From NCBI GenBank assembly GCA_036476315.1, contig JAZGBI010000098.1, positions 1-32,000 of the forward strand: a stretch of DNA of 32,000 nucleotides, written 5' to 3'. The notes beneath the pieces are model-generated. The model ran no database searches. It saw nothing but the letters and a program-made list of their open reading frames with translations, and was not told where the DNA came from. Below are positions 17,288 through 31,661 of the stretch, piece after piece. A program made the translations under genes and the position numbers. The stretch comes from Fidelibacterota bacterium. GTDB taxonomy: Bacteria > Fidelibacterota > Marinisomatia > Marinisomatales > S15-B10. Every line of letters starts with the position of its first letter. Position 1 is the stretch's first letter.

Positions 17288-18706
17288 CTAGACGGGCTCA
17301 AACTTTGCGGTGAAATGCCTCAGGAACTTCGCCTGCTCCACAATGCGAAAACCTCTGAGCTGTTCCCGTTTTTCCCAGACGCGTTTACACGCTTCAATCA
17401 CATAATCGATATGGCTTTGTGTATACACTCTTCGGGGAATAGCGAGTCTCACCAGTTCCATCTCCGCTGGCGTTTCCTCTCCCGTCTTAGGGTCCACCTT
17501 CCCGAACATCACCGAACCGATCTCCCCTGTCCGTATTCCACCCACCCGATACAGTTCAACCACCAGAGCTTCTCCGGGATATTCCAGGGAAGGAATGTGA
17601 GGTAAACTCGCTTTTGCATCGATATAGATCGCATGGGCGCCGGGCGGCTGGACGATAGGGAAGCCCGACTCTTCCAGAAACTTCCCGAGATACTGTGTTT
17701 CCGCAACCCGGTAAATAAGATATTCTTCACGGAGGACTTCTTTGAGTCCCACGGCAACGGCTTCCAGATCCCTTCCTGCCAGTCCCCCATAGGTGGGGAA
17801 GCCCTCTGTCAGGATGAGAAGATTTCTCTCCTCGCGGGCAAGATGGTCACTATTGGTGCACAGAAAGCCACCAATATTTGCCAGGCCGTCCTTCTTCGCG
17901 CTCATGGTACAGCCCTCTCCGTAGCTCATCATTTCTCGGACGATTTCCCAGACAGGCTTATTCCCATATCCCCTTTCGCGAAGCTTAATCAGGTAAGCAT
18001 TCTCAGCGAATCTGCAGGCATCAAAATAAAGGGGAATATCATGCCTGGAAAGAATCTCCTTAACGTTGCGAATATTCTCCATCGATACTGGTTGTCCCCC
18101 ACCTGAGTTGTTCGTAACCGTCAGCATGCAGAGGGGAATCTTTTCTCTCCCTACCTTTTTAATCAATGATTCCAGCTTATCCACGTCCATGTTTCCCTTG
18201 AACGGATATGGGTTCTGAGGATCCTTCCCTTCGTCAATGACCAAATCTTCGGCGATGGCACCCCTGAATTCGATATTGGCCCGGGTAGTGTCGAAATGTG
18301 AATTATTGGGAACCACATCGCCCGCGCTGCATGCGGCTGAAAAGAGAATGCGCTCAGCGGCCCGTCCCTGATGGGTTGGAATGACATGCTTGAATCCGAA
18401 GATTTCCTTCACCACATTTTCAAATCGCCGGTAACTCTCGCTCCCCGCATAGGCCTCGTCGCCCCGCATAATAGCACTCCACTGGTTGGCACTCATGGCA
18501 CCGGTGCCGCTGTCGGTGAGAAGATCGATAATCACATCCTGGGCATCAATCTGGAAGACATTGTAATCTGCCTGTTTGAGCACTTTCTCCCGGTGTTGGC
18601 GAGTGGTCATCCGGATCGGCTCGACCGATTTGATCTTGAACGGCTCGATTATGGTTCGGAAAGTGGTCCCAGCTTTGTTCAACTGATGGATCTCTTCTTT
18701 TCCCAC
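17288..18706 (-). CDS. tnaA: tryptophanase (beta-eliminating lyase family; tyrosine phenol-lyase not fully excluded)
   Basis: 472 aa. EPFKIKSVEP, IDLLTDSGTGAMS, PTHQGRAAE, the PLP-lysine block CTMSAKKDGLANIGGFL, DACRFAENAYLIK and LRHFTAKFEPV. SAKKD and RFAENAY agree with tryptophanase rather than TPL (SGKKD, RCVENAY) as I recall them. Confidence 0.8.
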   Translation of the reverse strand: MGKEEIHQLNKAGTTFRTIIEPFKIKSVEPIRMTTRQHREKVLKQADYNVFQIDAQDVIIDLLTDSGTGAMSANQWSAIMRGDEAYAGSESYRRFENVVKEIFGFKHVIPTHQGRAAERILFSAACSAGDVVPNNSHFDTTRANIEFRGAIAEDLVIDEGKDPQNPYPFKGNMDVDKLESLIKKVGREKIPLCMLTVTNNSGGGQPVSMENIRNVKEILSRHDIPLYFDACRFAENAYLIKLRERGYGNKPVWEIVREMMSYGEGCTMSAKKDGLANIGGFLCTNSDHLAREERNLLILTEGFPTYGGLAGRDLEAVAVGLKEVLREEYLIYRVAETQYLGKFLEESGFPIVQPPGAHAIYIDAKASLPHIPSLEYPGEALVVELYRVGGIRTGEIGSVMFGKVDPKTGEETPAEMELVRLAIPRRVYTQSHIDYVIEACKRVWEKREQLRGFRIVEQAKFLRHFTAKFEPV

Positions 18707-19589: not shown

Positions 19590-20519
19590 CTAATCCACCA
19601 TTTCCGAACCGCCCAGAACGTCCTCAAGATTAAATCGACCTTCCTTTTCCATCTGCCGTGCCGCATCCACGATCGTCTTTCTTGCCATATTCACCTCTCG
19701 CTTCGGGATGGCCCCTTCCACGGGCTCATACATGGCCTGTTTTTTCTGCGGGAGGTTATTGAGAACCTTGTCCGAGGTCTCCTGAGGCAGACCCTTGAAA
19801 GCGAGTGCGATGGTATCCAGCTCGACCGTGTTCATGATTTCCCGAAGTAGGTTGTCGGGAAAGCTGAAGATGTCATCAAATGTTAGGTAGTACTTCTTGA
19901 TCTCTTTCACCAGGTCAGGTGATTCCCGGGAGATGGTTTCAAGGTATCTCTCCTCCTCCTCGGGAGGCATCTGGCCCAGAATATCAGCGATACTCTTTCC
20001 CCCACCGCGGGAGAAGTCCACGGCCCGGGGAAGGAAGTGAGACTTATGTTCCAATTGCGTGGCCACATTCACGATCGCTTCCAGTGGAACTTCACTCAGA
20101 TTACCCATTTCCATGAGTACCCTTCCTTTAACTTCCGGCGCTAGCCGGTTGATTACCACCATCCGCCTCTCGGATGAAACCTGGGCCGCGGCCATGGCGA
20201 TAATGCGAGGCTCTTCCACTTCCAGAAGTGCCGCGAGCTGCTCATCTGCGAGACTGTCAAGGAATTCGAAGGGTCGTTTCGCATCGGTCACATCCGATTT
20301 CTGGAGTTTCCTCGAAATAAAGGCAAGATAGAATTCATCAACGACTTGCTTTTTGATTAAAGAGGAAACGGGCTCCATTTCACGGATCCGGCTACGGATT
20401 TTTCTCACCTCCGTTTCTCCCAACCCCTTAATGAGTTTAACCGCAAGGCCCTCTCCAAGAACGGAAAAGACTATGGCCACTTTATCCAGGCCGGACAGTC
20501 TGTTATATTCGGTAATCAT
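19590..20519 (-). CDS. FliG-like rotor/switch protein (three-domain architecture, divergent C-terminal torque helix)
   Basis: 309 aa. The N domain LSGLDKVAIVFSVLGEGLAVKLIKGLGETEVRKI matches FliG L.G.eKAAilL..lGee.a..v.k.L...Ei. The middle domain is EEPRIIAMAAAQVSSERRMVVINRLAPEV..V..EM (canonical EHPQ.iA.iL..L....aa.vL..Lp.e). A GGGK linker follows. The C domain is YLTFDDIFSFPDNLLREIMNTVELDTIALAFKGLPQETSDKVLNNL (canonical MFvFEDl..lddr.iq.lLrevd...La.ALKga.eel.eki..Nm). Confidence 0.8.
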   Translation of the reverse strand: MITEYNRLSGLDKVAIVFSVLGEGLAVKLIKGLGETEVRKIRSRIREMEPVSSLIKKQVVDEFYLAFISRKLQKSDVTDAKRPFEFLDSLADEQLAALLEVEEPRIIAMAAAQVSSERRMVVINRLAPEVKGRVLMEMGNLSEVPLEAIVNVATQLEHKSHFLPRAVDFSRGGGKSIADILGQMPPEEEERYLETISRESPDLVKEIKKYYLTFDDIFSFPDNLLREIMNTVELDTIALAFKGLPQETSDKVLNNLPQKKQAMYEPVEGAIPKREVNMARKTIVDAARQMEKEGRFNLEDVLGGSEMVD

Positions 20520-20528
20520 CTCTCGCCT

Positions 20529-22064
20529 CTACTTTTTCTTTTTCTTCTTCCCCTTTTTTTCCTCTTCGGGGGGTGCTGCGGGAGGTGCCTCTTCAGGGGC
20601 CGGAGCCGCTTCAGCCTGAGGGGGTGCCTCTTCTTCCAGCCACTCCTTCACAATGCCGGTTGCCGTCTCGGGCTCACTCACGGCCGCGGACACGATGGAC
20701 TGGCGCGTCGATTTGACTTCGGATTGGAGAACCGCCGGATCTTCACCGGGTGCAACCGGGGGAACCGATGGGGGTGGAGGCGGCGTGGGCGGAGGTGTCA
20801 CTCGGGCCTCTCCGCCTTCAGATTTCGTCACTTTTTTTTTCGGGGGCCTCATCATCCAGGGAGGCGGCATAACGTACCGCGGCTTGCGTCTCCCATTGAA
20901 AAGGATGACAGCAGCGAGAGCCACAACCGCCAGCAATGAAATGGCACTCATGAGATAAATGGGGAGATTACTCACGCCCCCATTCGCCCGACTCATCTCT
21001 CTTTGAACCTGTTGCAGCATTGCAAGCTTTTCCCCTATGACGGAATCCAACCGGGCCTTCTCCTGTTCCATGGCGGTGACTTCATCCACCGCAGCCTGTT
21101 CTTCTTCATCGGTCATGCTGGCCGTTCCCAGCTCGACCCTCAGCTGATTGATTTCGCTGGCCAACTGAACCACTCTCAAGGAGTCTCGTGCCAGAAGGGC
21201 CTCTCTTTGCTCCTCAAACTCTCGACTGAGCCGCTCATTTTCAAGCTTTTGCAGTTCCAAACGCCAAACGGACTGTTCTTCCTCGCGGCGACTGGCTTCT
21301 TCATCCTTCCACCTCTCCAATTCCTGGCGCCAATCCTCCGCAACCTTTGCGTCGGTTTCAGCCTGTTTCTCTTCAAGCTGATCAATCTTCTGGGCAATAC
21401 TCCGCAGTATGATGGCTTCGGCAGTCCGCTCGTCCCTCCTCACCTTAAAGGAAGCTGTCATGATGCTCAACACATCACCCCGGCTGCGGTCATAATGCGA
21501 AGCAACCATAATGATTTGACGTACATTCTCAATCAACTCCGGAGATGACGCTTCCGGTAGAATACAGCTGATTTCCATTTTCTCTATCATAGGTATCGAA
21601 GCCGTAATGTCAGTGTACGATTGAGATATGATCCGTGCCCCTTCTCTTGAGGAAGGCTCCGGGAGGGCCTCTTCGAGTTCCACCACAGACGGCTCTTCAG
21701 TTTCTTCCTCCTCTTGTTCTACCTGGAAATCGAATCCGGGTATGGGGATACCCGTCACCCTTGACTTTCTCCCCTGGCGTTCTTCGGCAGGGGTGGGTGC
21801 GGATTTTTCCGGCGCTTCCTTGGGGGACGGCTCAAATGTCACTTCTTCCCTTACAGTGGGGGTGAACTTCAGATCCACCGTGACATCCAACACATACCGG
21901 TGGTCAGCCAGCACCTTTGACAGGGCAGATTCGATACGTTTTCTAAAATCGTTTTCCAGCATCAACTTCTGTGCCAGATAGGTAGACTCTTGACCCATAC
22001 TTACACCCACAATCGTAGCCCCAACCAGGGTGGCCGCCGCCATAAATGTCAATCTCCTTTTCAT
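20529..22064 (-). CDS. minimal FliF-like (MS-ring family) membrane protein: N-terminal TM, split RBM3-like core, long coiled coil, C-terminal TM, Pro-rich cytoplasmic tail with a FliG-binding-type motif
   Basis: 511 aa. LENDFRKRIESALSKVLADHRYVLDVTVDLKFTPTVREEVTFEPS aligns by eye with Salmonella FliF FANDVESRIQRRIEAILSPIVGNGNVHAQVTAQLDFANKEQTEEHYSPN. IEKMEISCILPE...VRQIIMVASHYDRSRGDVLSIMTASF aligns with IERLSVAVVVNY...IEDLTREAMGFSDKRGDTLNVVNSPF. The second TM is LPIYLMSAISLLAVVALAAVILF. The tail ..EPETATGIVKEWLEEE compares with the FliF C-terminus ..DPRVVALVIRQWMSND. Confidence 0.75.
   Translation of the reverse strand: MKRRLTFMAAATLVGATIVGVSMGQESTYLAQKLMLENDFRKRIESALSKVLADHRYVLDVTVDLKFTPTVREEVTFEPSPKEAPEKSAPTPAEERQGRKSRVTGIPIPGFDFQVEQEEEETEEPSVVELEEALPEPSSREGARIISQSYTDITASIPMIEKMEISCILPEASSPELIENVRQIIMVASHYDRSRGDVLSIMTASFKVRRDERTAEAIILRSIAQKIDQLEEKQAETDAKVAEDWRQELERWKDEEASRREEEQSVWRLELQKLENERLSREFEEQREALLARDSLRVVQLASEINQLRVELGTASMTDEEEQAAVDEVTAMEQEKARLDSVIGEKLAMLQQVQREMSRANGGVSNLPIYLMSAISLLAVVALAAVILFNGRRKPRYVMPPPWMMRPPKKKVTKSEGGEARVTPPPTPPPPPSVPPVAPGEDPAVLQSEVKSTRQSIVSAAVSEPETATGIVKEWLEEEAPPQAEAAPAPEEAPPAAPPEEEKKGKKKKKK
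20832..20840 (-). repeat. A9 homopolymer in the coding strand of the fliF-like gene (Lys-Lys-Lys)
   Basis: The + strand has T9 at 20832-20840, which equals AAA AAA AAA (K409-K411) just after the second TM. Further A-rich runs encode the C-terminal KKGKKKKKK. Confidence 0.9.
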
Positions 22065-22089: not shown

Positions 22090-22872
22090 TTATTCTTCCT
22101 TTTCTACTTTCTGACTCCCGGTCACTCCTGCAGAGCCTCCAGGAGTGGCCTTGAAAGTAATCTCGACCCGCCTGTTTCTCGCCTTTAGTGCAACCGTTTC
22201 ATTCTGCCTCCTGATAATATCTGGGGTTATTAATCGATCCGTAGGGCGATCTCTGGGAACGTTCTCAGCCAATCCGACAGCCTCCAACCGTGTGGGATCA
22301 ACGCCTAACTTAATCAGCTCCCGGACAACGCCGGCAGCACGGGCTGCTGAAAGTTCCCAGTTACTGGGATACTTATCCTGATATCCCTTCGGAAGCGGGT
22401 CACTGTCTGTGTGTCCTTCAACCGCCACAGGAAACTTATTGCCAGGCCTATTTATGGTAGGGACGAGCGTTTCCAATACCTGAACGATACCGGTCATCAA
22501 TTCAGCGGAGCCGGAAGAAAAACTAATTTCCGATGGAATGGCAATTGTCACACCCTTGGGGCTGGTGGATACTTCAACACCCTCAAGCGTATCTTCATTC
22601 TCTTCCAACATTTCAGTGACCGCCTTCTTAACATCAGCCAGATTCATTGCTTGCCCTTCTTTGGTAACCTTGCCAACCTTTTTGCCCATGGAATCGGCCA
22701 TTTCCTGCAGCTTAACCGGATCAATGGTCGAGATGGCCGCCAGCAAAACGAAGAATGCCAATAGGAGGGTCATCATGTCGGCAAAGGTGCTAAACCAACC
22801 GGGGAGCCCCTCTTCAACTTGAGCGCGACCCTTTTCTATAAGTCGCTTTTTCTCTGTCGCCGATACGGCCAA
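22090..22872 (-). CDS. motB: MotB-type stator protein (OmpA-like peptidoglycan-binding C-terminal domain)
   Basis: 260 aa. WFSTFADMMTLLLAFFVLL is a single TM with the conserved Asp (residue 32). The OmpA-like domain reads FSSGSAEL...VEGHTDSDP...SNWELSAARAAGVVREL...NRRVEITF. The TTG start lies 5 nt after the motA stop. Confidence 0.88.
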   Translation of the reverse strand: MAVSATEKKRLIEKGRAQVEEGLPGWFSTFADMMTLLLAFFVLLAAISTIDPVKLQEMADSMGKKVGKVTKEGQAMNLADVKKAVTEMLEENEDTLEGVEVSTSPKGVTIAIPSEISFSSGSAELMTGIVQVLETLVPTINRPGNKFPVAVEGHTDSDPLPKGYQDKYPSNWELSAARAAGVVRELIKLGVDPTRLEAVGLAENVPRDRPTDRLITPDIIRRQNETVALKARNRRVEITFKATPGGSAGVTGSQKVEKEE

Positions 22873-22877
22873 TCAGG

Positions 22878-23666
22878 CTACTCTTCTCTTTTCCACTCTT
22901 TCGGTGGAATAAATGAATTCAGTTTTTCACGTACGATGAGGGGATGTTTTTTCTGATGTATGAGCCTAGCAGCCTCTACCAGCATTGCCTGCATCGTACT
23001 GGTTTGAGAGATACGGGAATTAAGCTTTGCTGCCATGGGCAGAAAGAAGAGATTTGCAAGCACGGCTCCATAAAACGTTGTGATAAGCGCCGCCGACATA
23101 CCTACTCCAAGGGCTTCTGTACCGCCGCCCCCTTCACCACCAAATCCTGAAAGCATGATCACCAGTCCGATGAGTGTCCCGATCATCCCCCACGCCGGCG
23201 CCATGTTTCCCATGGTCTTGAACAGCTCTGCCTGGTGCTTCTCACGGATTTCTCTGTAATCAATACGCGTATTCAGAATCTCGATGATCTCGGGCTCTGA
23301 ATACCCATCCACCACCATCTGAACACCGTCTTTGAAGAAGAAATTCCTGATTCCCCCAATAGCCTGTTCCAATTCTGCCGGTCCTTTTCTTGCGGACTCC
23401 GACACTCCTACCGCCGCATCGACAAGACCTCCCAACCTTACGACTCCGCCTTTGAAGACCGCCCCCATGGCGGCTCCCAGTTTCATGACCTCCGAGAGTG
23501 GAAATGCAACGGAGACTGAAGCTACCATTCCGCCGACTACAATTGCGAAGCTGGCTGCGGAAACGAAACCGCCCACACCTGCACCCACGGCCGAGGCAGC
23601 GATAAAGATTCCCCCACTTATGGAAACCAACCCAATCAGGATTCCTACGAGAGTTGCTATGTCCAT
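22878..23666 (-). CDS. motA: MotA/PomA-type stator protein
   Basis: 262 aa. MDIATLVGILIGLVSISGGIFI is a MotA/PomA-type N-terminus. There is a cytoplasmic loop of about 100 aa between TM2 and TM3. APAWGMIGTLIGLV and FYGAVLANLFFLPMAAKL carry the two conserved prolines (P157, P210). This is a four-TM MotA topology rather than three-TM TolQ/ExbB. Confidence 0.88.
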   Translation of the reverse strand: MDIATLVGILIGLVSISGGIFIAASAVGAGVGGFVSAASFAIVVGGMVASVSVAFPLSEVMKLGAAMGAVFKGGVVRLGGLVDAAVGVSESARKGPAELEQAIGGIRNFFFKDGVQMVVDGYSEPEIIEILNTRIDYREIREKHQAELFKTMGNMAPAWGMIGTLIGLVIMLSGFGGEGGGGTEALGVGMSAALITTFYGAVLANLFFLPMAAKLNSRISQTSTMQAMLVEAARLIHQKKHPLIVREKLNSFIPPKEWKREE

Positions 23667-23675
23667 GAGTTGTTT

Positions 23676-25040
23676 CTACTCCGTACTAAAGCTTGTGGTT
23701 TTTAGCCGATTCTCGTGCAACGCCTTCAATATATTTCGAACATCATCATACTCGGGATCCATCTTAAGCGCCAGATTCCAGTTGATGGTGGCTCTCTGAA
23801 TATCCCCAAGTTTGTAATAGATGGATCCCCGCCGAGCATAGGCCAACGCCAGATTGGGATTCAATTCCAGAGAGGTTTCCACTTCCTGGAGTGCTTCACG
23901 GTAGTCTCCCGAATAGAAGTATCTCAGAGACCGAGACAGATGACGCATGGCCCGGTTCAGATTCTTCTGGCCAATGCCTCTTTCCAACCGCAATGTATTC
24001 ACAGAATCGTCCAGAGTAACCGACTTCTGCCTCAACTGGGCCACCTCGGCACCGAGGTTTCGGGTCTGATATCTGGACACTCTCAGGGAATCTCGCAGAA
24101 CCGCCACGGCATAGTCCGCGGCAAGAAGAGTCGTATCGAGCATGGCTGCCTCGGGAATGGGAGATGGTGCGCCCGGGAGCCCCGGGACCTCCCTCACGGC
24201 AGCGGCCCTGGGTACCGACATATCAAGACCGATGGTGAATCCCGGATGATCCGCTCCGTACGGCTCCTCGGAAAACGTGGGCAAATTTTCTATGTGGGTG
24301 AATCCTAGGCCCAGGCGATAATCCGAGGTAAGGGGGATGCGGAGTCCCACATTGATGCCCGACCCGTCGAATTCACCCACAATATCCAAACCACCCCACT
24401 GGGGTAAGAAAGGCGTGGTTAACAGAAATCCCGCAAAAACACCGACGTTGGAACCGCTCGACGTGGTGTCCGCTGCCGCGGTCGACTCCCGCGTCACCAA
24501 CGCCTGCGAAAACCCTCCCGTTCCGAAACCGATGTACGTGCTGAGATGGTAGCCACCGAATGGCTTCTCACTCCCAATAACGCCGAAAAAGGAAAGGAGC
24601 TTTGTATCCAAATTCAATCCGTTTTCCGTCGCATTTTCAAAAACAACATCATGAAGTCCCAGGGAAAAAGAGATGTTATCACGTACGTACACCCGCTGCT
24701 GAAAATGGAAACCGAATTCCGCCGGCGCCACGTACTGGGACGTATCCAGAAGCACTAAAGATGTGGTGTCAGCCCCCTGACCAGAAGAAAATCCGAGAGT
24801 GAACCTGTCGGTGACATCCATCTGGAAGTAGACTCCTCGGGCCACGTTGAAAGGGGAAAAGTTGTGGATTTCAGCCCCGAAGCCCGTGCTGAATAGATAG
24901 GGTGAACGGGCGGTGCGCGTGGTGGGAATTTTCATCATTACTCCGGGGCGCGTATACGCCACCCGGGTTAACGAATCCAACGGTGAAATGGCCACCACCA
25001 AAAACATTACCACAAAAATTGTCTTTACTTTCCCAATCAT
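23676..25040 (-). CDS. secreted beta-rich domain + coiled coil + C-terminal TPR protein, function unknown
   Basis: 454 aa with a signal/anchor (MIGKVKTIFVVMFLVVAISPL). About 270 aa have an amphipathic beta-strand pattern (GFHFQQRVYV, GGLDIVGEFDGSGINVGLRIPL, YRLGLGFTHI). A heptad-like segment follows, then TPR repeats (YSGDYREALQEVETSLELNPNLALAYARRGSIYYKLGDIQRATINWNLALKMDPEY). Confidence 0.6.
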   Translation of the reverse strand: MIGKVKTIFVVMFLVVAISPLDSLTRVAYTRPGVMMKIPTTRTARSPYLFSTGFGAEIHNFSPFNVARGVYFQMDVTDRFTLGFSSGQGADTTSLVLLDTSQYVAPAEFGFHFQQRVYVRDNISFSLGLHDVVFENATENGLNLDTKLLSFFGVIGSEKPFGGYHLSTYIGFGTGGFSQALVTRESTAAADTTSSGSNVGVFAGFLLTTPFLPQWGGLDIVGEFDGSGINVGLRIPLTSDYRLGLGFTHIENLPTFSEEPYGADHPGFTIGLDMSVPRAAAVREVPGLPGAPSPIPEAAMLDTTLLAADYAVAVLRDSLRVSRYQTRNLGAEVAQLRQKSVTLDDSVNTLRLERGIGQKNLNRAMRHLSRSLRYFYSGDYREALQEVETSLELNPNLALAYARRGSIYYKLGDIQRATINWNLALKMDPEYDDVRNILKALHENRLKTTSFSTE

Positions 25041-25042
25041 GA

Positions 25043-26020
25043 CTACCTCTCGGCGTTCCGCAGCTCCAGTTGAGCCAGTTTGAGATATTCACTGTCAGGA
25101 TAATTGTCTATGATATTGGCGAACGCTTCAATCGCTTGAATCTCATCCCCCATCTGGCGGTAGACCAGCCCGGTCAAGATCATGGCATCGTCCTGCTTAT
25201 CTGATCTGAATAGAGGCTCAATCGCCACCAATGTTCTCAGGGTCTCACCGTATTCACCCATCTGATAGTAGCAGTCCGCTATCCAGTAGAGAACGTTTCC
25301 GGCTGTAACATCATCAACGTCTCCAAGGTACAGCTCCGCAAAATGTCGCAGCGCCATGCTGAAATCCTCTCGTTGATAGGCAAAAACGGCATTCATATAG
25401 ACCGTCCGGTTAAAGGGCCGCTTTTCATTTGTCAGTCGACGTGACGGGGCTTCGACCAAATTAATCTCCATTGGACTTACCTGGGTCAATTCCTCTTCCC
25501 GGGGTTCCTCCGCAGCAACGGGTACGGTGACCTCCTCATCATCGGCTGCTTTAGTAGCCGTGGCGTCAGCGGGAGCCACGTTCAACGGCATTACTTCAGA
25601 CGTTGATACCCGGGCCTCCTCCGGGTGAGAGATCGGCTCCCTTGCCAACAGATCGGCTATCATGCCGCGCAAGTCCTCATTCTCTTGCCTCAGGCTCCCC
25701 ACCTCCCTCTCAAAAGCGGCCTCAAGAGTCTCAATCTTTTGGCTAATTCGATTCAATGTTTGCTGCATTTCTCTCGTGGATGCAATAAAGACAGATCCGC
25801 TGGGTGCCTTATCGACAAAGAATTTTACTTTCTCCGGGGGCGCTTTCACGAGCCGGGTAACTTCTTCATCCCCTGTAGCCGATTCAATCACAATTCCCAG
25901 ATCGAGAAAGAAAATGTCATTCCCCACGGGTCCCGCTGACTGGCCGGCCAGATAGCCTGAAAGTACCATCGCAAAAGCGAGATTTCGCAGCAGATAGATC
26001 ATGGCGCGAACGATGCTCAT
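25043..26020 (-). CDS. CpoB/YbgF-like periplasmic coiled-coil + TPR protein
   Basis: Signal peptide, coiled coil (QQTLNRISQKIETLEAAFEREVGSLRQENEDLRGMIADLL), acidic linker, then YMNAVFAYQREDFSMALRHFAELY...AGNVLYWIADCYYQMGEYGETL...DDAMILTGLVYRQMGDEIQAIEAFANIIDNYPDSEYLKLAQLEL. This is collinear with the YbgF C-terminal repeat pattern (Y..A......y..A...F..F...yP.s....nA.YWLGe.yy....y..A). ATG 26020 overlaps the upstream stop as ATGA; the ORF opens at 26035. Confidence 0.6.
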   Translation of the reverse strand: MSIVRAMIYLLRNLAFAMVLSGYLAGQSAGPVGNDIFFLDLGIVIESATGDEEVTRLVKAPPEKVKFFVDKAPSGSVFIASTREMQQTLNRISQKIETLEAAFEREVGSLRQENEDLRGMIADLLAREPISHPEEARVSTSEVMPLNVAPADATATKAADDEEVTVPVAAEEPREEELTQVSPMEINLVEAPSRRLTNEKRPFNRTVYMNAVFAYQREDFSMALRHFAELYLGDVDDVTAGNVLYWIADCYYQMGEYGETLRTLVAIEPLFRSDKQDDAMILTGLVYRQMGDEIQAIEAFANIIDNYPDSEYLKLAQLELRNAER

Positions 26021-27147
26021 TCGTACTCTTCCCAATCTATCGTATAAGAATAGCCGATATACGACCCAAATTCTGCGGGTATGACGAGTTCAAATGTCCC
26101 AGTTGCCCCCGGGAGAAGAGAGGAGTCCGTGGTGATACCAGAGTCGAAGGAATAGTAACTTCCCGAGACAAAAGAGGTCAGGGTTTGAGTTTCACCACTC
26201 CAGTTCTTCCTGAATACAAAATTCACTTTGACAAAATCTGACCGGCGGCCACCAATGTTCTTCACCTGGCCGGAAAAAGTGGTATTGTTGGACCGGTCCC
26301 TTTTTTCGGAAATATTTCCCATGAGAACAATATTGGCCGCTCGATCCCTGGCGGCAAGCCGTTCCGTGGGTTCTCCTGCCACATAGCGAGGTTGTGCCAG
26401 CTTCGGCATGGGAGGTGGACTGTAGGTCTCCCGAATCTGTTCGGGAATATATTCCGGCTCCTCCTCCGCAATAACGTTTTCCACAATCCGAACCACCTGG
26501 CTCCGGTCTATCACCAGATACCCTACCAACGTCTCGACTTTCAAGATTTCCTCATCTTGATACACGACTTTTCCAAAGACAGTGCTTCCGTTGTCTAGAA
26601 TAATCTCTTTGCTGTAAATGGAGAGGGGATTCGTCCACATTTCACTTCTCGCCTGAAGATCCCGAACCTGGCCTCCCAGATGATCCATTTCCGCCGCCAG
26701 TTTCTTCAGTTCAAAACTGAGTTCGGTGGTGACATATTCTTCCTGTGGCAACCGCTCAGCTTCTTTCCCTGCGGCAGCCGCTCCCGTTTCACCGGGCTTT
26801 TTCGCCACGACCAATGACAGTTCAATTTCCTGGTCTTCATCGGCCACCGCGAAATCGAGGGAGGCGGAACCTGCATCCTCCTCGGTCGCCTTCACACTAT
26901 ACCTGCCGGGCGACACCTTCTTAAACTCAAACTTACCCTTACCACCGAACCGCTTCCCCGTTGAGGTTTGGTCCACCTCTCCCCCGTCTGCATCGAGAAG
27001 CACCACGTCAGCAGCAGGTACTTTTTCCCCCTCTTGGTCTTTCACGACACCGCTGACGGTGTACGTCTCATCCTGAGCGACCAGGAATGACCCCACAAGG
27101 GCTGTAGCAAAAACAATAAGGATAAAGTTCTTGGCAGGTTGTTTCAT
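26017..27147 (-). CDS. secreted multidomain protein: CarboxypepD_reg-like beta-sandwich, coiled coil, small beta (SH3-like) domain, C-terminal FxLYD-like beta-sandwich
   Basis: 376 aa with a signal peptide (ILIVFATALVGSFLVAQ). YTVSGVVKDQEGEKVPAADVVLLDADG...GKFEFKKVSPGRYSV is CarboxypepD_reg-like. LSFELKKLAAEMDHLGGQVRDLQARS is coiled coil. IILDNGSTVFGKVVYQDEEILKVETLVGYLVIDRSQVVRIV is a small beta domain. The C-terminal FSGQVKNIGGRRSDFVKVNFVF...LLPGATGTFELVIP is FxLYD-like. Confidence 0.5.
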   Translation of the reverse strand: MKQPAKNFILIVFATALVGSFLVAQDETYTVSGVVKDQEGEKVPAADVVLLDADGGEVDQTSTGKRFGGKGKFEFKKVSPGRYSVKATEEDAGSASLDFAVADEDQEIELSLVVAKKPGETGAAAAGKEAERLPQEEYVTTELSFELKKLAAEMDHLGGQVRDLQARSEMWTNPLSIYSKEIILDNGSTVFGKVVYQDEEILKVETLVGYLVIDRSQVVRIVENVIAEEEPEYIPEQIRETYSPPPMPKLAQPRYVAGEPTERLAARDRAANIVLMGNISEKRDRSNNTTFSGQVKNIGGRRSDFVKVNFVFRKNWSGETQTLTSFVSGSYYSFDSGITTDSSLLPGATGTFELVIPAEFGSYIGYSYTIDWEEYE

Positions 27148-27307: not shown

Positions 27308-30073
27308 CTAGAACGTATAGTTGAGAGAGGCTCTGATAAGAGTGCTCCTTTTGGACTCGCCGTCAATCTTTTTGAATCGCAATCCCCCATCGAAGCGAGC
27401 CCGGAGATATTCGGTGATCCGGTAATTGACTCCTGCACGGATCCCCAGCCGGCTGAATTCCTCGTTCCCCGTACCCGAGGTACGATTGATCCCCGCCAAA
27501 AGCTTGAGTCGATTCCCCAGCACATCATACGTTCCACTCAGGGTTACATTGGTAATATTCTGACCGCCATAATCATAGGCAAAATCCTCGGGGATGCCAA
27601 ATGTGCTTCTGTTCACCGAAACAATCGCAGTGGTTTTCAGAGGAAAGGGGTATTCCGTCATCACAGACAGATTGATCACATCTGATTTCAGATTCGGGGA
27701 TACAAAGGTGGAATCGAAGAACAGCGTATCCCCAGTAAGATTCGTACCGAAGTATGGGGCGGAAGGGCGGTCATCAAACTGATCCGCCCGGTCAAGCAAA
27801 ACGTAGTTGACTGACAGGTTGTGATTGAACCCCGAGAAGCTCACTCGGTGGGTGAGTCCAAAACTGGCATTGACACTTTTCGTGAAATTGCGAAGGTCCT
27901 CCAGGTCGATTCTTCGTGCCTCAGGATCGACGTTTACCGTATCCAGGGTCGTTTTACCGTTATCGCGGTCCTGAACCCGGTAGCTCAACGCGAAAGAAGG
28001 GAGATCCCCTCCCGGGTAAATTCCCGCGTTCATAGTTACCGTATTTGTTGTGGTCACGTCCGTCACCACACGGAGAATGTCATCATCCTGATGCTTATAG
28101 ATAAGGTTGAGAAGAAGGCGATTCTGGAAAAACCCGACTCTGTCTGAAATCGTATATTGCCGATTGTTTTTCTGAATATAGGGATTGCCCAGTGAATTGA
28201 ACTCGGGGCCCACCTGCACGAATTCGAAACTGAGGCGATTCTGAAGTAAATTGCCCGAGGCTCTAAAATTGTACGCCGCAGAAGGAAGCTTCAGAATCGC
28301 CTTCACGGGCTCTTGAAACAGGAGCAGCGTGTCCACTGGTATGAGTGGCCTGAGATTCAGATTCAGCACAAACAGGTCTTCATAATCCTTGGGATCGAAT
28401 GGGATGTCAAAGGATCCTCCAATCTTTCCGTCCAGTGTCGAATCACCCAAAACACCCAGAGTGTCGAGTTCGCTTTTGCTGAACGCGCCACCCCATATAT
28501 TCCCATTGAACATACTGAATGCAAATCCCGCCTCGATTCCGATCTGACGCCTAAAGAGAGAGAACTTTAAATCGGAACCCATCACAATATTGTCCTGAGG
28601 GGAATCACCGGCCCAGCTTTCCTCGTCCGCCAGATCAATAGAATAGTTGTTCTCCAGGAGCAGATTACTAAGGTCACGGTAGGTGTAGATATCCGGGCTA
28701 ATTGCCAGGGAAAGCGCTTCAACCGTGTCGACTTCTATCTTGGCATTGTCCAGAATAGGCTCTACCGAAGTAATATCATCCTTTGCCTTCAACCAGTTGA
28801 AGCCCAGCTGAAAGATCTTTCCGCTGCCAAAACTCAACCGTGTGGAAAAAATATCTTTTTGGAAGGTGTATCCCTTCCTGTTGAGCTGGTATCTTATGGA
28901 TTCTCCCTGAAGTTCCACGCCTTCAGACAGGTAGGTCTCTCCTTCACCAAGTCTCCCCTGGATTTTTCTTTCCAATTCGCCTTTCACCACATGAAGGTTA
29001 ACGAAGCCCAGTTGCAGGTCTGCATCCACGCCTCTCACTCGCTTGCCGTCCAGAGTGAATCGGGAAAGCCGGGAATTGAAATCCCCGAACTTCAACCGCA
29101 GGTAATCGCCGGCTTCCAAGCTCAACCGATACCGGTTTCTCGGTTGCTTGAAAGAATCCTCTTCCGATGTGAGTTTTAGATCCGATTTGAATCGTAAAGG
29201 ACCCCACTCTCCAGAGAAGTTCGCCGTCGTCTGACTGATTGCCAGTGGATCACCCTCATCGATTTCATCAAAAGAGTAACCCCCGTTTATCCTGCCACCA
29301 TAGGTCAGGACCCGCTCCACAGCTTCCACTTTCTCCACGTGCTCCCGAACGGCCTCAAACGACCAGGCTTTTGGCTCCACAGGGCGACCCGTCAAAGCGG
29401 TCAGTTCTATCCGTACCTGATGCCTCCCCGGGAGGAGAAGTTTAGGCTCATACGTCACAAGATCGGGACCCACAAGAGAGCGGGCCGTTACATCACGACC
29501 GTCAACGAGGAGTCTGACCGAGGATACATCCACAGAGTCCACATTGAAAAGTGAAGCCGCAATGAGGACATCATCGAACGGGATTCTTGCTCCGGGCAAG
29601 GGACTGAAAATAATAACGGCATCAACTCCCACCGCAGGTGCTGCCTCAACCACCGTCGTCGGCTCCGGTTCCGGGCTAATCTGAACAGAAACTGGGGCAT
29701 CCTGGGGATCGGTCTCTGGGAAGTTGAGTACGGACCCATCCACCAACGTTGCCGAAATGAAGTATTCCACCCCTTCGAGAGAAAGGCGTTCCAGAGGAAT
29801 TTCGCCACGCCACCCCTCCGTCGTTCCTTCCATCTCCACTTCAATGAAGCCCTCTTCACCCGTTTCTCGATAGAAAAGGTCTACCCTCTCCACATCAACA
29901 GGAGAGGAGACATCCGCCTGTATGACCAGGACTTCAGTGGCCGTGTGGCGAATAACCGGCTGATGGGTGATGACCCCTGTGGCCTGAGCGTGAAGAGAGG
30001 TAAATGTCAAAATAACACAACTTGACGTGAGAAAAATCCTTTTCCACGGCGAACCGCTTGTCTGCTGATCCAT
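27308..30073 (-). CDS. large outer-membrane beta-barrel protein with two N-terminal Ig-like/beta-sandwich domains
   Basis: 921 aa with a signal peptide (ILTFTSLHAQA). Two beta-sandwich-like domains come first; the second reads SVRLLVDGRDVT...YEPKLLLPGRHQVRIEL...WSFEA, resembling bacterial Ig/CopC-like folds. About 650 aa of alternating-strand sequence rich in G/Y/N/S/F follow, ending ..RASLNYTF with a terminal Phe, the usual OMP C-terminal signature. Confidence 0.65.
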   Translation of the reverse strand: MDQQTSGSPWKRIFLTSSCVILTFTSLHAQATGVITHQPVIRHTATEVLVIQADVSSPVDVERVDLFYRETGEEGFIEVEMEGTTEGWRGEIPLERLSLEGVEYFISATLVDGSVLNFPETDPQDAPVSVQISPEPEPTTVVEAAPAVGVDAVIIFSPLPGARIPFDDVLIAASLFNVDSVDVSSVRLLVDGRDVTARSLVGPDLVTYEPKLLLPGRHQVRIELTALTGRPVEPKAWSFEAVREHVEKVEAVERVLTYGGRINGGYSFDEIDEGDPLAISQTTANFSGEWGPLRFKSDLKLTSEEDSFKQPRNRYRLSLEAGDYLRLKFGDFNSRLSRFTLDGKRVRGVDADLQLGFVNLHVVKGELERKIQGRLGEGETYLSEGVELQGESIRYQLNRKGYTFQKDIFSTRLSFGSGKIFQLGFNWLKAKDDITSVEPILDNAKIEVDTVEALSLAISPDIYTYRDLSNLLLENNYSIDLADEESWAGDSPQDNIVMGSDLKFSLFRRQIGIEAGFAFSMFNGNIWGGAFSKSELDTLGVLGDSTLDGKIGGSFDIPFDPKDYEDLFVLNLNLRPLIPVDTLLLFQEPVKAILKLPSAAYNFRASGNLLQNRLSFEFVQVGPEFNSLGNPYIQKNNRQYTISDRVGFFQNRLLLNLIYKHQDDDILRVVTDVTTTNTVTMNAGIYPGGDLPSFALSYRVQDRDNGKTTLDTVNVDPEARRIDLEDLRNFTKSVNASFGLTHRVSFSGFNHNLSVNYVLLDRADQFDDRPSAPYFGTNLTGDTLFFDSTFVSPNLKSDVINLSVMTEYPFPLKTTAIVSVNRSTFGIPEDFAYDYGGQNITNVTLSGTYDVLGNRLKLLAGINRTSGTGNEEFSRLGIRAGVNYRITEYLRARFDGGLRFKKIDGESKRSTLIRASLNYTF

Positions 30074-30095
30074 CTTATTCCTTACTTGTCCCCTG

Positions 30096-31661
30096 CTATT
30101 GAAATTTGATGATGAGTTCTTTTCTTCGCCCGTGATTATCCTCCATATCGAAAATCAACTCCCGTTCAGCAACGATCACCATAACGGCGGTGGCCAGAAA
30201 TGCCCCCGTTTCTTTCTCCACACTCCCGGTAACCGTTACCCGAAGACCGGTCGTAATCTCACCTCCCTCAATCTCGGTATCCGGTCCTAATTTCACAATA
30301 CCGGACAAAGTTGAAGGATCGAGATCCCCTTCCTGGACGGTGATGTCGGTGATTTCGAACTGCTCGTTTACTACCGGAGAATTAACCGTCGCCAAGAGCA
30401 CTACCTGTGGAAGGCGGATACGTTCAGCAACTATGTCTCCCGTCTCTTCGTCCAAGGTTCCCACTACCGTCACCTTGAGACCGACAGTCAGTTCGTCTAC
30501 TTCTATCACGGTCGACCCTGTTACAATTACCCGGCCCGATAAGGCGGAAGCCTCAATTTCACCCACCTTCACCTCGATTTCAGACAGTTCAACCAGGCCC
30601 TCCTCGCTGACAGCGGTGATAAGTCCCGTGATTCTCAATTTAGGAATGACAACGATCATTTGTGTGGCTTCAAGAACTTCGGTCTCCCTGTTGAAAATCC
30701 CCACCACGGTGACCTCTGCCCCATAGATGATATCGTCACCTTCGATTACCGTCCCCTCGGTTATCTTCACCTCGGCGGGGAGAGTTTCTCGATCGCCCTC
30801 CACAACGGTCACGTCGGAAATGGGAAACCGGTTTCCCGTGAACGTTGATGACACAATCCCTCTTATCGTGACGCGCTCCGAAACTTCGATGAGAGTGGCC
30901 TCCACGTTCCCAGTTTGTTCATCCAGGATGCCGGTGAGAGTGATTACCGCCCCCGCTTTTACGTCAGTCCCCTCAAAGACCGTGCCTCCCGTGACCTCTA
31001 CAGTGTCAGACAGATCCTGGGCACTCACCCCTCCACCCAATACGGATATACCGGAAAGTGTAAATCGGCCTGCCGATATACCCGAGGAGGCTTCTCCCCT
31101 GACCTTTACCGTGGCGAGAACCTCGATTTTACCGTCTGCGTTCGATTCTACAACGGTCCCCGGTACTACGGAATGAACGCTTCCGGATATGAGATTGGTC
31201 AGCTCGATGGCTCCCTCAAGACTGATGATGATATCTCCAGAATCGGGATCAGTCAAAACCCACAACTCGGTCCCCTTGATCGAGGCAACCGACGTGGGGG
31301 TGGTGATGGTGAATTGCTGGGTCTGCTCTTTCACCGTTGCCTTCAAGGTGCCATAACTCAACTCCACACGCTTGGAAATTACCCCCTCGGTGCGACTTCC
31401 TGCTATCCGCGTCTCCGTGTTCTGTCTAATCTTCAGTTGAGACTTATCATCCAAAAACAGAGCGATGGCCAGCCCATCATCGCCGGTGACCACAAAATCA
31501 CCATCAAAAAGCGAGGAGCCGCGCCGGAGGGTCTGAAAGTCTGGCACTTGTTCTCCCTTATGACTGACCTGTCCGGACGTCTTCATGGTCAACGCTATCC
31601 TGTCAACGGCCAGTAGTCCACTGGTGACAGTGACCAGGAACAATAACTTCCGCATCATCAC
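30096..31661 (-). CDS. secreted FecR-domain protein followed by four tandem DUF5666-like modules
   Basis: 521 aa with a signal peptide (MMMRKLLFLVTVTSGLLA). The FecR-like region is LFDGDFVVTGDDGLAIALFLDDKSQLKIRQNTETRI...LSYGTLKATV...FTITTPTSVASIKGTELWV. Four modules of about 78 aa follow. The start overlaps the upstream stop (ATGA at 31658-31661). Confidence 0.65.
   Translation of the reverse strand: MMMRKLLFLVTVTSGLLAVDRIALTMKTSGQVSHKGEQVPDFQTLRRGSSLFDGDFVVTGDDGLAIALFLDDKSQLKIRQNTETRIAGSRTEGVISKRVELSYGTLKATVKEQTQQFTITTPTSVASIKGTELWVLTDPDSGDIIISLEGAIELTNLISGSVHSVVPGTVVESNADGKIEVLATVKVRGEASSGISAGRFTLSGISVLGGGVSAQDLSDTVEVTGGTVFEGTDVKAGAVITLTGILDEQTGNVEATLIEVSERVTIRGIVSSTFTGNRFPISDVTVVEGDRETLPAEVKITEGTVIEGDDIIYGAEVTVVGIFNRETEVLEATQMIVVIPKLRITGLITAVSEEGLVELSEIEVKVGEIEASALSGRVIVTGSTVIEVDELTVGLKVTVVGTLDEETGDIVAERIRLPQVVLLATVNSPVVNEQFEITDITVQEGDLDPSTLSGIVKLGPDTEIEGGEITTGLRVTVTGSVEKETGAFLATAVMVIVAERELIFDMEDNHGRRKELIIKFQ
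30171..31112 (-). repeat. four tandem protein-level repeats of about 78 codons inside the FecR-domain gene
   Basis: Residues 184-261, 262-340, 341-419 and 420-497 share the pattern (V/I)x(I/V)xGx(I/V)...F.(I/L)(S/T)(D/E)(I/V).V........L....V.(I/V)T.GT.(I/F)EG....G..(V/I)T(V/L).G....ETG...A..(I/M).V. Examples are AVITLTGILDEQTGNVEATLIEV, EVTVVGIFNRETEVLEATQMIVV, KVTVVGTLDEETGDIVAERIRL and RVTVTGSVEKETGAFLATAVMVI. Confidence 0.75.

Follow-up and report, generated by a model that had tools for sequence, protein, structure and literature searches.

A switch-less FliG with a shortened torque helix in a conserved operon of MotA, MotB and a FliF-like protein in Marinimicrobia

We analysed a 32,000-nucleotide stretch of a Fidelibacterota genome (contig JAZGBI010000098.1, positions 1 to 32,000), called the window below. 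An operon of this window encodes MotA, MotB and a FliF-like protein, and its last gene is an open reading frame of 309 amino acids (aa) related to FliG. This reading frame is a switch-less FliG: it has the three FliG domains, the motif to which FliM binds is gone, and the torque helix is cut down to a segment that is the most conserved of the protein. Domain identities, conservation, synteny, motif loss and selection are observed over related loci. They lead us to favour, with moderate confidence, a functional rotor–stator module that has no switch, with the FliG-like protein as its probable cytoplasmic rotor subunit and with a non-flagellar output, across the Marinimicrobia (SAR406, Fidelibacterota). 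The features of the FliG-like gene are as follows.

19590..20519, minus strand: FliG-like rotor protein, 309 aa; FliG_N at aa 8-72, FliG_M at aa 93-160, FliG_C at aa 194-298
20205..20216, minus strand: EEPR in the place of the FliM-binding EHPQ of EHPQR (translation)
19995..20006, minus strand: GGGK hinge at the FliG_M/FliG_C junction, aa 172-175 (alignment A1)
19695..19757, minus strand: torque-helix segment NLPQKKQAMYEPVEGAIPKRE, aa 255-275 (translation, alignments, entropy, AlphaFold2)

The three domains scored above the Pfam gathering thresholds (FliG_N, 52 bits; FliG_M, 56.9 bits; FliG_C, 82 bits). An AlphaFold2 model was computed from an alignment of 25 relatives (mean predicted local distance difference test score, pLDDT, 80.6), and its best structural matches in Foldseek were FliG structures. 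The C domain superposed on 8ucs_H, the FliG_C chain of the C. sporogenes MotAB–FliG complex, with a root-mean-square deviation (rmsd) of 1.6 Å and a TM-score of 0.81; the M domain superposed on 4fq0_C with 1.6 Å and 0.85. In alignment A1, which holds 25 FliG-like sequences of 60-83% identity, R171, G173, G174 and K175 of the hinge RGGGK are invariant. The N, middle and C domains and the GGGK linker, which a first-pass annotation of this DNA had recognised by eye, are therefore confirmed by Pfam, Foldseek and the invariant hinge. The same annotation had called the protein shorter than typical FliG, and indeed the canonical FliGs of our comparison set have 329-349 aa. Most of the missing length belongs to the C-terminal part of FliG_N; the match to its profile spans positions 2-66 of 104.

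As in FliG of T. maritima (1LKV), A. aeolicus (3HJL), the Salmonella C-ring (8UMD) and C. sporogenes (8UCS), the protein has the three-domain architecture, the Gly-Gly hinge and ARM-like folds; its C domain superposes on FliG_C of the known structures at an rmsd of 1.6-1.9 Å. It also shares the lysine equivalent to K264, a basic residue that opens the torque segment, and flagellar-type MotAB genes next door. It differs in its length (309 aa as compared to about 330-345), in its truncated FliG_N, in the absence of EHPQR, in a torque helix that is three residues shorter and has Pro-Val at the D288/D289 positions, and in belonging to a phylum in most genomes of which FliM and FliN are not found. 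The equivalog models reflect this distance: the protein scored 112.7 bits against TIGR00207, about half of the cut-off (226.7), and 38.1 against NF004260 (cut-off 550). A search retrieved 1044 homologues, and the source names among the 120 matches listed were all Marinimicrobia or Fidelibacterota.

The loss of the FliM-binding motif concerns the whole group. In the 46 canonical FliGs the EHPQR columns are well kept (E in 45 sequences, H in 33, P in 44, Q in 45 and R in 45). In the window protein the motif reads EEPR…E, and the residue equivalent to R160, aa 137, is Glu. The H, Q and R of the motif are replaced in 224 Marinimicrobia sequences that span the window's clade and its sister clade, the Arg having become Glu.

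The second departure from canonical FliG concerns the torque helix. Charged residues were mapped by HMMER alignments to the FliG proteins of T. maritima, A. aeolicus and H. pylori. E. coli numbering is used. The torque region of the window protein is written here as NLPQKKQAMYEPVEG. The canonical NMSKRAAALLKDELEYMGPVR aligned with NLPQKKQAMYEPVE---GAIPKR, and all three alignments needed a net deletion of three residues. The lysine at the K264 position, K242, is retained and invariant. At the R281 position stands K259, which is a conservative substitution, and K260 comes next. P266 and V267 occupy the D288/D289 positions, inside the net deletion, with E265 and E268 on either side. The R297 equivalent is offset by one residue, P272 and K273 being adjacent. 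The canonical charge set (R281, D288, D289, K264, R297) is thus not conserved as a whole, so the protein did not prove to be an ordinary FliG. The mapping also agrees in each respect with the first-pass annotation of the segment, which had described a non-canonical torque helix with a proline mid-segment (P266), basic residues kept near the start (K259/K260) and an acidic pair replaced or shifted. The distance from N255 to K273 was compared over 270 full-length relatives:

Window's group, n = 167: 19 residues
Canonical FliGs, n = 46: 22 residues
Sister Marinimicrobia clade, n = 57: 23 residues

The sister clade (P0123 type; loci L085 and L086) has a canonical-type torque segment, SLPQRTQIILEDEMELLEGPQPRR, in which R, E-D-E and RR are all present. 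Because this clade retains all canonical charges, the short form was derived within the phylum; relative to the sister segment, the window's protein shows a deletion of four residues as the derived state.

In the AlphaFold2 model, only residues 258-263 of this region are helical (six residues, about 1.5 turns), and residues 264-272 form a loop. Residues 255-266 are nevertheless the 12-residue window of lowest entropy in the FliG-like family (0.17 bits versus a mean of 1.03), and ten residues of the segment are invariant in alignment A1: L256, P257, K259, K260, Q261, A262, M263, E265, P266 and E268. Divergent lineages of the short type retain LP(Q/K)(K/R)KQAM(F/Y) and vary at the acidic positions, as in MFTPIDKP and MFERREGP. 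The charge polarity is retained, basic (K259, K260) and then acidic (E265, E268), with an altered geometry. The shortening is not a degeneration; the segment is strongly selected.

The stator genes of the operon are the following.

22878..23666, minus strand: MotA of flagellar type, 262 aa (PDB 8ucs_C and 6ysf_E; NCBIfam)
23364..23396, minus strand: cytoplasmic loop of MotA, SARKGPAELEQ, aa 91-101, carrying the rotor-facing Arg and Glu (translation, conservation)
22090..22872, minus strand: MotB, with a transmembrane helix carrying the channel Asp (FADMMTLL), a plug and an OmpA-like peptidoglycan-binding domain

MotA matched C. sporogenes MotA (8ucs_C, 6ysf_E) with 135 bits, and its best NCBIfam matches were MotP, PomA and MotA. 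Its median identity across loci, 73%, is the highest in the operon. All 125 loci compared have R93 and E100, which correspond to R90 and E98 of E. coli; of these loci, 89 encode a short-type FliG, 7 a variant short-type and 29 a long-type. Pro157 and Pro210 are invariant too. MotB matched MotB_plug (60.6 bits) and OmpA (44.5 bits) in Pfam as well as the PDB chains 6ysf_A and 8ucs_A (E about 1e-19), and its channel Asp is invariant. The pair thus shares with flagellar-type stators a B subunit with channel Asp, plug and OmpA-like domain and an A subunit with the conserved prolines and a rotor-facing Arg and Glu, and it fits the flagellar stator features listed for the 'FIT' class (PMC12505986). 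In E. coli, the interface pairs are R90–D288/D289 and E98–R281 (PMC12505986).

The first-pass annotation had pointed out that the adjoining MotA loop SARKGPAELEQ retains Arg and Glu, which the invariance of R93 and E100 bears out, and had proposed a co-evolved, non-canonical interface. The second proposal stands for one side only: the FliG side is non-canonical, and co-evolution is not borne out on the MotA side. When co-variation between FliG and MotA was analysed over the 125 loci, only three MotA substitutions tracked the FliG type (G95/S95, G73/K73 and F149/L149). These reflect a single phylogenetic split and are confounded by it, so they are not evidence of compensation. No matching FliG/MotA indels were found across the same loci. 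In both FliG clades alike, the Arg-to-Glu spacing of MotA is one residue less than that of its C. sporogenes counterpart. Co-evolution is thus only partly supported, because R93 and E100 are equally invariant where the sister FliG keeps its R…EDE helix. Overall, the alignments indicate that FliG was remodelled while the MotA surface stayed essentially the same.

One could argue that a segment so altered no longer touches MotA, FliG_C having been retargeted to another partner while MotAB acts elsewhere. The absence of the canonical acidic pair, the reduction of the helix to about six residues and the variable acidic residues of the divergent short-type lineages would all agree with such a change. 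However, R93 and E100 of MotA are invariant in the same genomes, motA, motB, fliF-like and fliG-like are contiguous everywhere, the basic-then-acidic order of charges is kept, and so extremely conserved a segment suggests that its partner is fixed, MotA being the most conserved protein of the operon. We regard retargeting as improbable.

The gene preceding fliG-like is the following.

20529..22064, minus strand: FliF-like protein, 511 aa, for which the gene caller places the start 7 codons later (Pfam, AlphaFold2, Foldseek)

Its Pfam match to YscJ_FliF_C reached 28.7 bits, and its score against TIGR00206 (33.9) was below the cut-off of 129.75. The AlphaFold2 model (mean pLDDT 70) begins with a transmembrane helix, followed by an RBM3 and beta-collar whose long beta-hairpins carry a disordered insert, and then by helices of 99 and 44 residues. 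After a second transmembrane segment, a Pro-rich linker leads to two conserved C-terminal helices, in which a Trp is invariant, and the chain ends in a Lys-rich tail. All 18 top Foldseek matches were FliF structures; 17 of them are solved MS-ring or RBM3/collar rings, and the remaining one is an integrative FliF–YlxF model. Thus, the protein resembles FliF in its two transmembrane segments, its RBM3 and beta-collar with a disordered loop, and its cytoplasmic C-terminal tail of two helices. It is unlike FliF in having RBM3 and collar only, as neither Pfam, AlphaFold2 nor Foldseek found RBM1 or RBM2, and in having about 145 aa of long helices between RBM3 and the second transmembrane segment, a Pro-rich linker and a poly-Lys tail. 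In flagella, RBM1 and RBM2 surround the export gate and the proximal rod.

The end of the FliF-like protein, …P..A..I(K/R).W(L/M) in the family and …QPETA.GIVKEWL in the window, resembles the FliG-binding end of Salmonella FliF (…DPRVVALVIRQWM), and we take this as a lead only. A comparison of the C-terminal tail with PDB sequences, in which FliF–FliG co-fold peptides were sought, returned only low-complexity noise. The stop codon of fliF-like and the start codon of fliG-like are 9 nt apart, which suggests translational coupling.

Two further observations were made on the FliF-like protein. The disordered insert, about 65 residues long (aa ~78-144; window 21750-21860), is placed at the tip of the predicted beta-collar and carries an invariant P-I-P-G-F-x-F. 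In place of this PIPGF.F motif, the sister clade has LP(L/I)PGFE and the fusion proteins described below have LPGLPF; the insert is probably a docking site for a periplasmic partner. The Lys-rich tail, EEEKKGKKKKKK, is encoded by an A/G-rich run at the 3′ end of the gene (20529-20570, minus strand) and is kept across orthologues, with K500-K503 nearly invariant.

The question is then whether the genes belong to a flagellum. No flagellar genes were found in the 32-kb window or in the annotated flanks of four related loci (L001, L003, L085, L086). For the phylum, we used a published table of hits of hidden Markov models (HMMs) in metagenome-assembled genomes (MAGs), namely Dataset 3 of PMC10359470. 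The 15 Marinisomatota rows considered from it record fliG in 11, fliM in 1, fliNY in 1, and cheA, cheB and cheR in none. Both fliM and fliN/Y are missing from 10 of the 11 fliG-positive rows, and the MAGs listed there with fliG alone include ones that are 94.4%, 93.1%, 86.6% and 84.5% complete (PMC10359470). The phylum has a single member in culture, Fidelibacter multiformis, which is non-motile (PMC11652737); this bears on the operon only if its strain IA91 carries the genes. Most of the phylum, but not all of it, appears to have a FliG without a switch. As most SAR406 genomes apparently have no fliM or fliN, the flagellar motor core has possibly been reused for a non-swimming role.

An ordinary FliG serving a true but divergent flagellum would require that the other genes lie elsewhere and that the altered torque helix is a lineage-specific tuning of a swimming motor. 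Every part of the module is homologous to a part of the flagellar motor, the sources annotate the protein as FliG, and TPR scaffolds surround the stators of complex flagellar motors (PflA/PflB, FlcA, MotX). Moreover, one Marinisomatota MAG of the table has fliG, fliM and fliNY. Against these points stand the 10 of 11 fliG-positive rows with neither fliM nor fliNY, the 15 of 15 rows with no cheA, cheB or cheR, the annotated flanks with no flagellar genes and the non-motile cultured relative. The proteins themselves also argue against a flagellum: the EHPQR motif is lost, the equivalog scores are far under their cut-offs, and the FliF-like protein, which has no RBM1/RBM2, contains a long coiled coil at a place where there is none in FliF. 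We therefore consider a true flagellum unlikely.

The whole operon comprises seven tightly packed genes on the same strand, with spacings from a 19-nt overlap to a 25-nt gap. In order, they encode a CarboxypepD_reg protein, a YbgF/CpoB-like TPR protein, a 454-aa TPR protein, MotA, MotB, the FliF-like protein and the FliG-like protein. The first three are given here.

26017..27147, minus strand: secreted 376-aa protein with a CarboxypepD_reg domain, a coiled coil, a small beta domain and a C-terminal beta domain (Pfam, sequence)
25043..26035, minus strand: 330-aa protein with an N-terminal anchor or signal, a coiled coil and C-terminal TPR (Pfam TPR_6, YfiO)
23676..25040, minus strand: 454-aa protein with C-terminal TPR (Pfam TPR at aa 370-441)

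Related loci were collected by scanning one genome per species with the motif KKQAM[YF]EP, and 159 loci were confirmed; those with a named taxon were almost all MAGs of Marinimicrobia, Fidelibacterota or the 'FCB group'. Among 84 loci taken from genome representatives, the gene order was identical wherever the contig was long enough, and motA, motB, fliF-like and fliG-like are contiguous throughout the loci. The CarboxypepD_reg gene, the first of the conserved block, is syntenic in 109 loci. The 454-aa TPR gene is syntenic in 124 of 167, the remainder being mostly cut by contig ends. The sister clade (L085, L086) has the same operon with one additional TPR gene, a FliG-like protein of 310 aa and a somewhat shorter FliF-like protein; it shares with the window type the loss of EHPQR and R93/E100 of MotA. 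The ratio of non-synonymous to synonymous substitution rates (dN/dS) was 0.09-0.12 for six of the seven genes, with dS near saturation; for the seventh, TPR1, there were too few close sequences for an estimate.

These data leave almost no room for a decaying, non-functional remnant of a flagellum. Low equivalog scores and lost canonical motifs are what a remnant would show. However, dN/dS is about 0.1 for all six genes estimated (TPR1 not among them), the open reading frames are intact, their order is identical in the 159 confirmed species-level loci, and the altered segment is the most conserved one. A remnant is effectively refuted by this conservation, and we give it hardly any weight.

A promoter-like site lies 5′ of the CarboxypepD_reg gene (27239-27211, minus strand), on weak evidence, and a promoter and terminator scan gave counts no higher than in shuffled sequence. 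As for the 454-aa protein, its first ~350 aa match no family, are beta-rich and punctuated by aromatic residues, and possibly form an outer-membrane barrel, to judge by their sequence.

The accessory genes raise another explanation, an envelope energiser akin to Tol-Pal or TonB. Ion flow through MotAB would then drive conformational work of the FliF-like coiled coil on outer-membrane or peptidoglycan partners, and the FliG-like protein would serve in the cytoplasm as an adaptor or regulator, so that no large ring would turn continuously. The ~145 aa of TolA-like long helices in the FliF-like protein, the OmpA-like domain on MotB, the periplasmic or outer-membrane type of the accessory genes and the 330-aa TPR protein, which is YbgF/CpoB-like with its coiled coil and TPR, speak for it. 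The last of these scores below the NCBIfam cut-offs, however (tol_pal_ybgF, 37.4 against 90.1; CpoB, 27.7 against 383). RBM3 with its collar is a ring-forming module, and the strong structural matches are all FliF, 17 of 18 being rings of 33-35 subunits. In addition, known Tol and Ton motors couple within the membrane and not via a cytoplasmic FliG, and the MotA is of flagellar type with an invariant rotor-facing Arg and Glu. We think such an energiser unlikely.

Known systems were also considered as identities for the operon. Tol-Pal was rejected because the scores of the YbgF-like protein are under the cut-offs and the operon has neither TolB nor Pal; its MotAB, moreover, score as flagellar stators. 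Zorya was rejected as well, since in PADLOC only MotB matched ZorB models and no ZorA, ZorC or ZorD was detected among the seven genes. Signatures of ZorA, GldL and GldM were not found in the operon proteins with Pfam, NCBIfam or PADLOC. In common with the non-flagellar 5:2 ion-driven motors (ExbBD, TolQR, GldLM/PorLM, ZorAB, AglRQS), the module has a stator of the MotA/MotB family, an output apparently in the envelope, and no filament. Unlike the window module, these motors work with neither FliG nor FliF, and the flagellar torque interface is missing from their A subunits. PorE of the type IX secretion system combines the same domain types as the accessory genes (TPR, CarboxypepD_reg, OmpA), as described in PMC12773672; we take this as a lead only.

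We return to the switch-less rotor–stator module and to how it might work. The FliF-like protein would form a ring of S-ring/collar type, and its two C-terminal helices would dock the shortened FliG_N, giving a FliG ring beneath the inner membrane. Stator units of the MotA5B2 type would be held to the peptidoglycan by MotB and probably positioned by both TPR proteins and the CarboxypepD_reg protein. Ions would flow via the invariant MotB Asp, and the stators would push FliG_C. At the interface, K259/K260 on the 1.5-turn helix may face E100 of MotA, and E265/E268 on the Pro-kinked loop may face R93. With the FliM/FliN-binding motif gone, there would be no chemotactic switching. With RBM1/RBM2 gone, neither a rod nor a type III export gate would have a seat. 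Torque would therefore leave by way of the collar ring and then along the long coiled coil in the periplasm, reaching a non-flagellar partner in the periplasm or the outer membrane.

Several points weigh against this reading. Ring formation, rotation and the pairing of charged residues, like the output itself, are steps that we infer, and no output component was identified for the module. In divergent short-type lineages, E265 is replaced by Thr or Ser and E268 by Asp, Glu or Lys, so the proposed acidic contacts are not universal. The check for flagellar genes covered only the window and the annotated flanks. Very divergent FliM or FliN could escape the HMMs, and the fliG hits of the table rows are not necessarily the present FliG-like protein (PMC10359470). 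Finally, the MAG that has fliG, fliM and fliNY in these rows, Fu_MAG_87 (family UBA8229, genus AB-629-J13), is 91.6% complete with 0.1% contamination, whereas the other 14 rows record neither fliM nor fliNY (PMC10359470); therefore, the phylum is not uniformly aflagellate.

A more specific version of the switch-less module can be put forward, to which we give somewhat less than even credence. It is a flagellum-independent rotary machine of SAR406, in which MotAB, set in a TPR scaffold, would drive two rings, one of collar-only FliF and one of switch-less FliG. Torque would pass through the periplasm-spanning coiled coil to an envelope output, which might be the movement of surface adhesins, secretion or envelope remodelling. 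Together with single-chain FliF–FliG fusions that accompany TPR and MotAB in other uncultured bacteria (L169), it would form a wider class of rotor–stator devices not yet described, either derived from the core of the flagellar motor or related to its ancestor.

The fusions were met among distant FliG relatives; of the 150 best of these, ~45 have lengths of 575-790 aa. By sequence, P0156 and P0163 appear to be natural fusions that join an RBM3-like segment with LPGLPF, a transmembrane segment and FliG N, M and C domains. Their loci are listed here.

L168, 3196-5199: fusion locus
L169, 5351-7315: fusion locus

Unlike in the window, the rotor ring and FliG are in one chain and the torque segment is LPGKLRAAIVDELKFGE. 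The L169 fusion is flanked by a TPR gene on one side and by MotA and a MotB plug on the other; the MotA of the fusion locus is only 28% identical to that of the window. Fusions in the company of TPR and MotAB genes hint that minimal rotor–stator modules form a broader class. Another relative, P0206 (771 aa, with a FliG_C), was set aside; it has no MotAB neighbour and is probably something else.

Other genes around the operon were surveyed. Those of the window encode purine synthesis enzymes, BioY, an acyl-CoA synthetase, PPDK, peptidases and a beta-eliminating lyase. The region directly upstream on the same strand (27308-31661, minus) encodes two proteins, one of 521 aa with a FecR domain and one of 921 aa with a weak Big_7 match. 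These two were rejected as parts of the system, being present in 0 and 2, respectively, of the first 84 loci; given this rarity, they are lineage-specific additions. The lyase, of the tryptophanase/tyrosine phenol-lyase family (17288-18706, minus), follows the operon in 33 loci. Between operon and lyase, the window and 8 loci have a gene for a DUF481 outer-membrane protein, which was likewise rejected as a system part (8 of the first 84 loci).

Two oddities of the locus collection concern single assemblies. The MAG isolate NP55 carries two FliG-like loci, L017 (PBTS01000042) and L075 (PBTS01000039), with 66% and 57% identity to the window, which reflects either two populations binned together or a real duplication. 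A short-type FliG-like gene also occurs on a 2.5-kb contig (L083, JAKUNG010000054.1) of a MAG labelled Terriglobia, most likely by a binning error.

In the literature on flagella and FliG of Marinimicrobia, on non-flagellar FliG/MotAB, on FliG-like proteins and on the type IX secretion system, we found no description of this operon. Its parts belong to the known FliG, FliF and MotAB superfamilies, and there is a substantial chance that together they form a machine of a new type.

The FliG torque helix and its charges are the textbook site of torque generation, and the Marinimicrobia offer a natural variant in which this helix is cut to 1.5 turns and its acidic pair replaced. That the segment is the most constrained one of the FliG-like protein, with MotA unchanged, tests how much of the canonical interface is needed. 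For trait surveys of marine metagenomes, 'fliG present' should not mean 'motile', as scoring by fliG alone would mislabel this phylum. If the module rotates, it would be, to our knowledge, the first case of a flagellar rotor core driving something non-flagellar. It would then bear on the cell biology of SAR406 and on the evolution of the motor, for instance on whether a rotor–stator core can exist with no type III export apparatus. More important than the torque helix is its setting: an operon that combines a flagellar-type stator with FliF-like and FliG-like proteins alone, and that is kept throughout a phylum ranking among the most abundant bacteria of the dark ocean.

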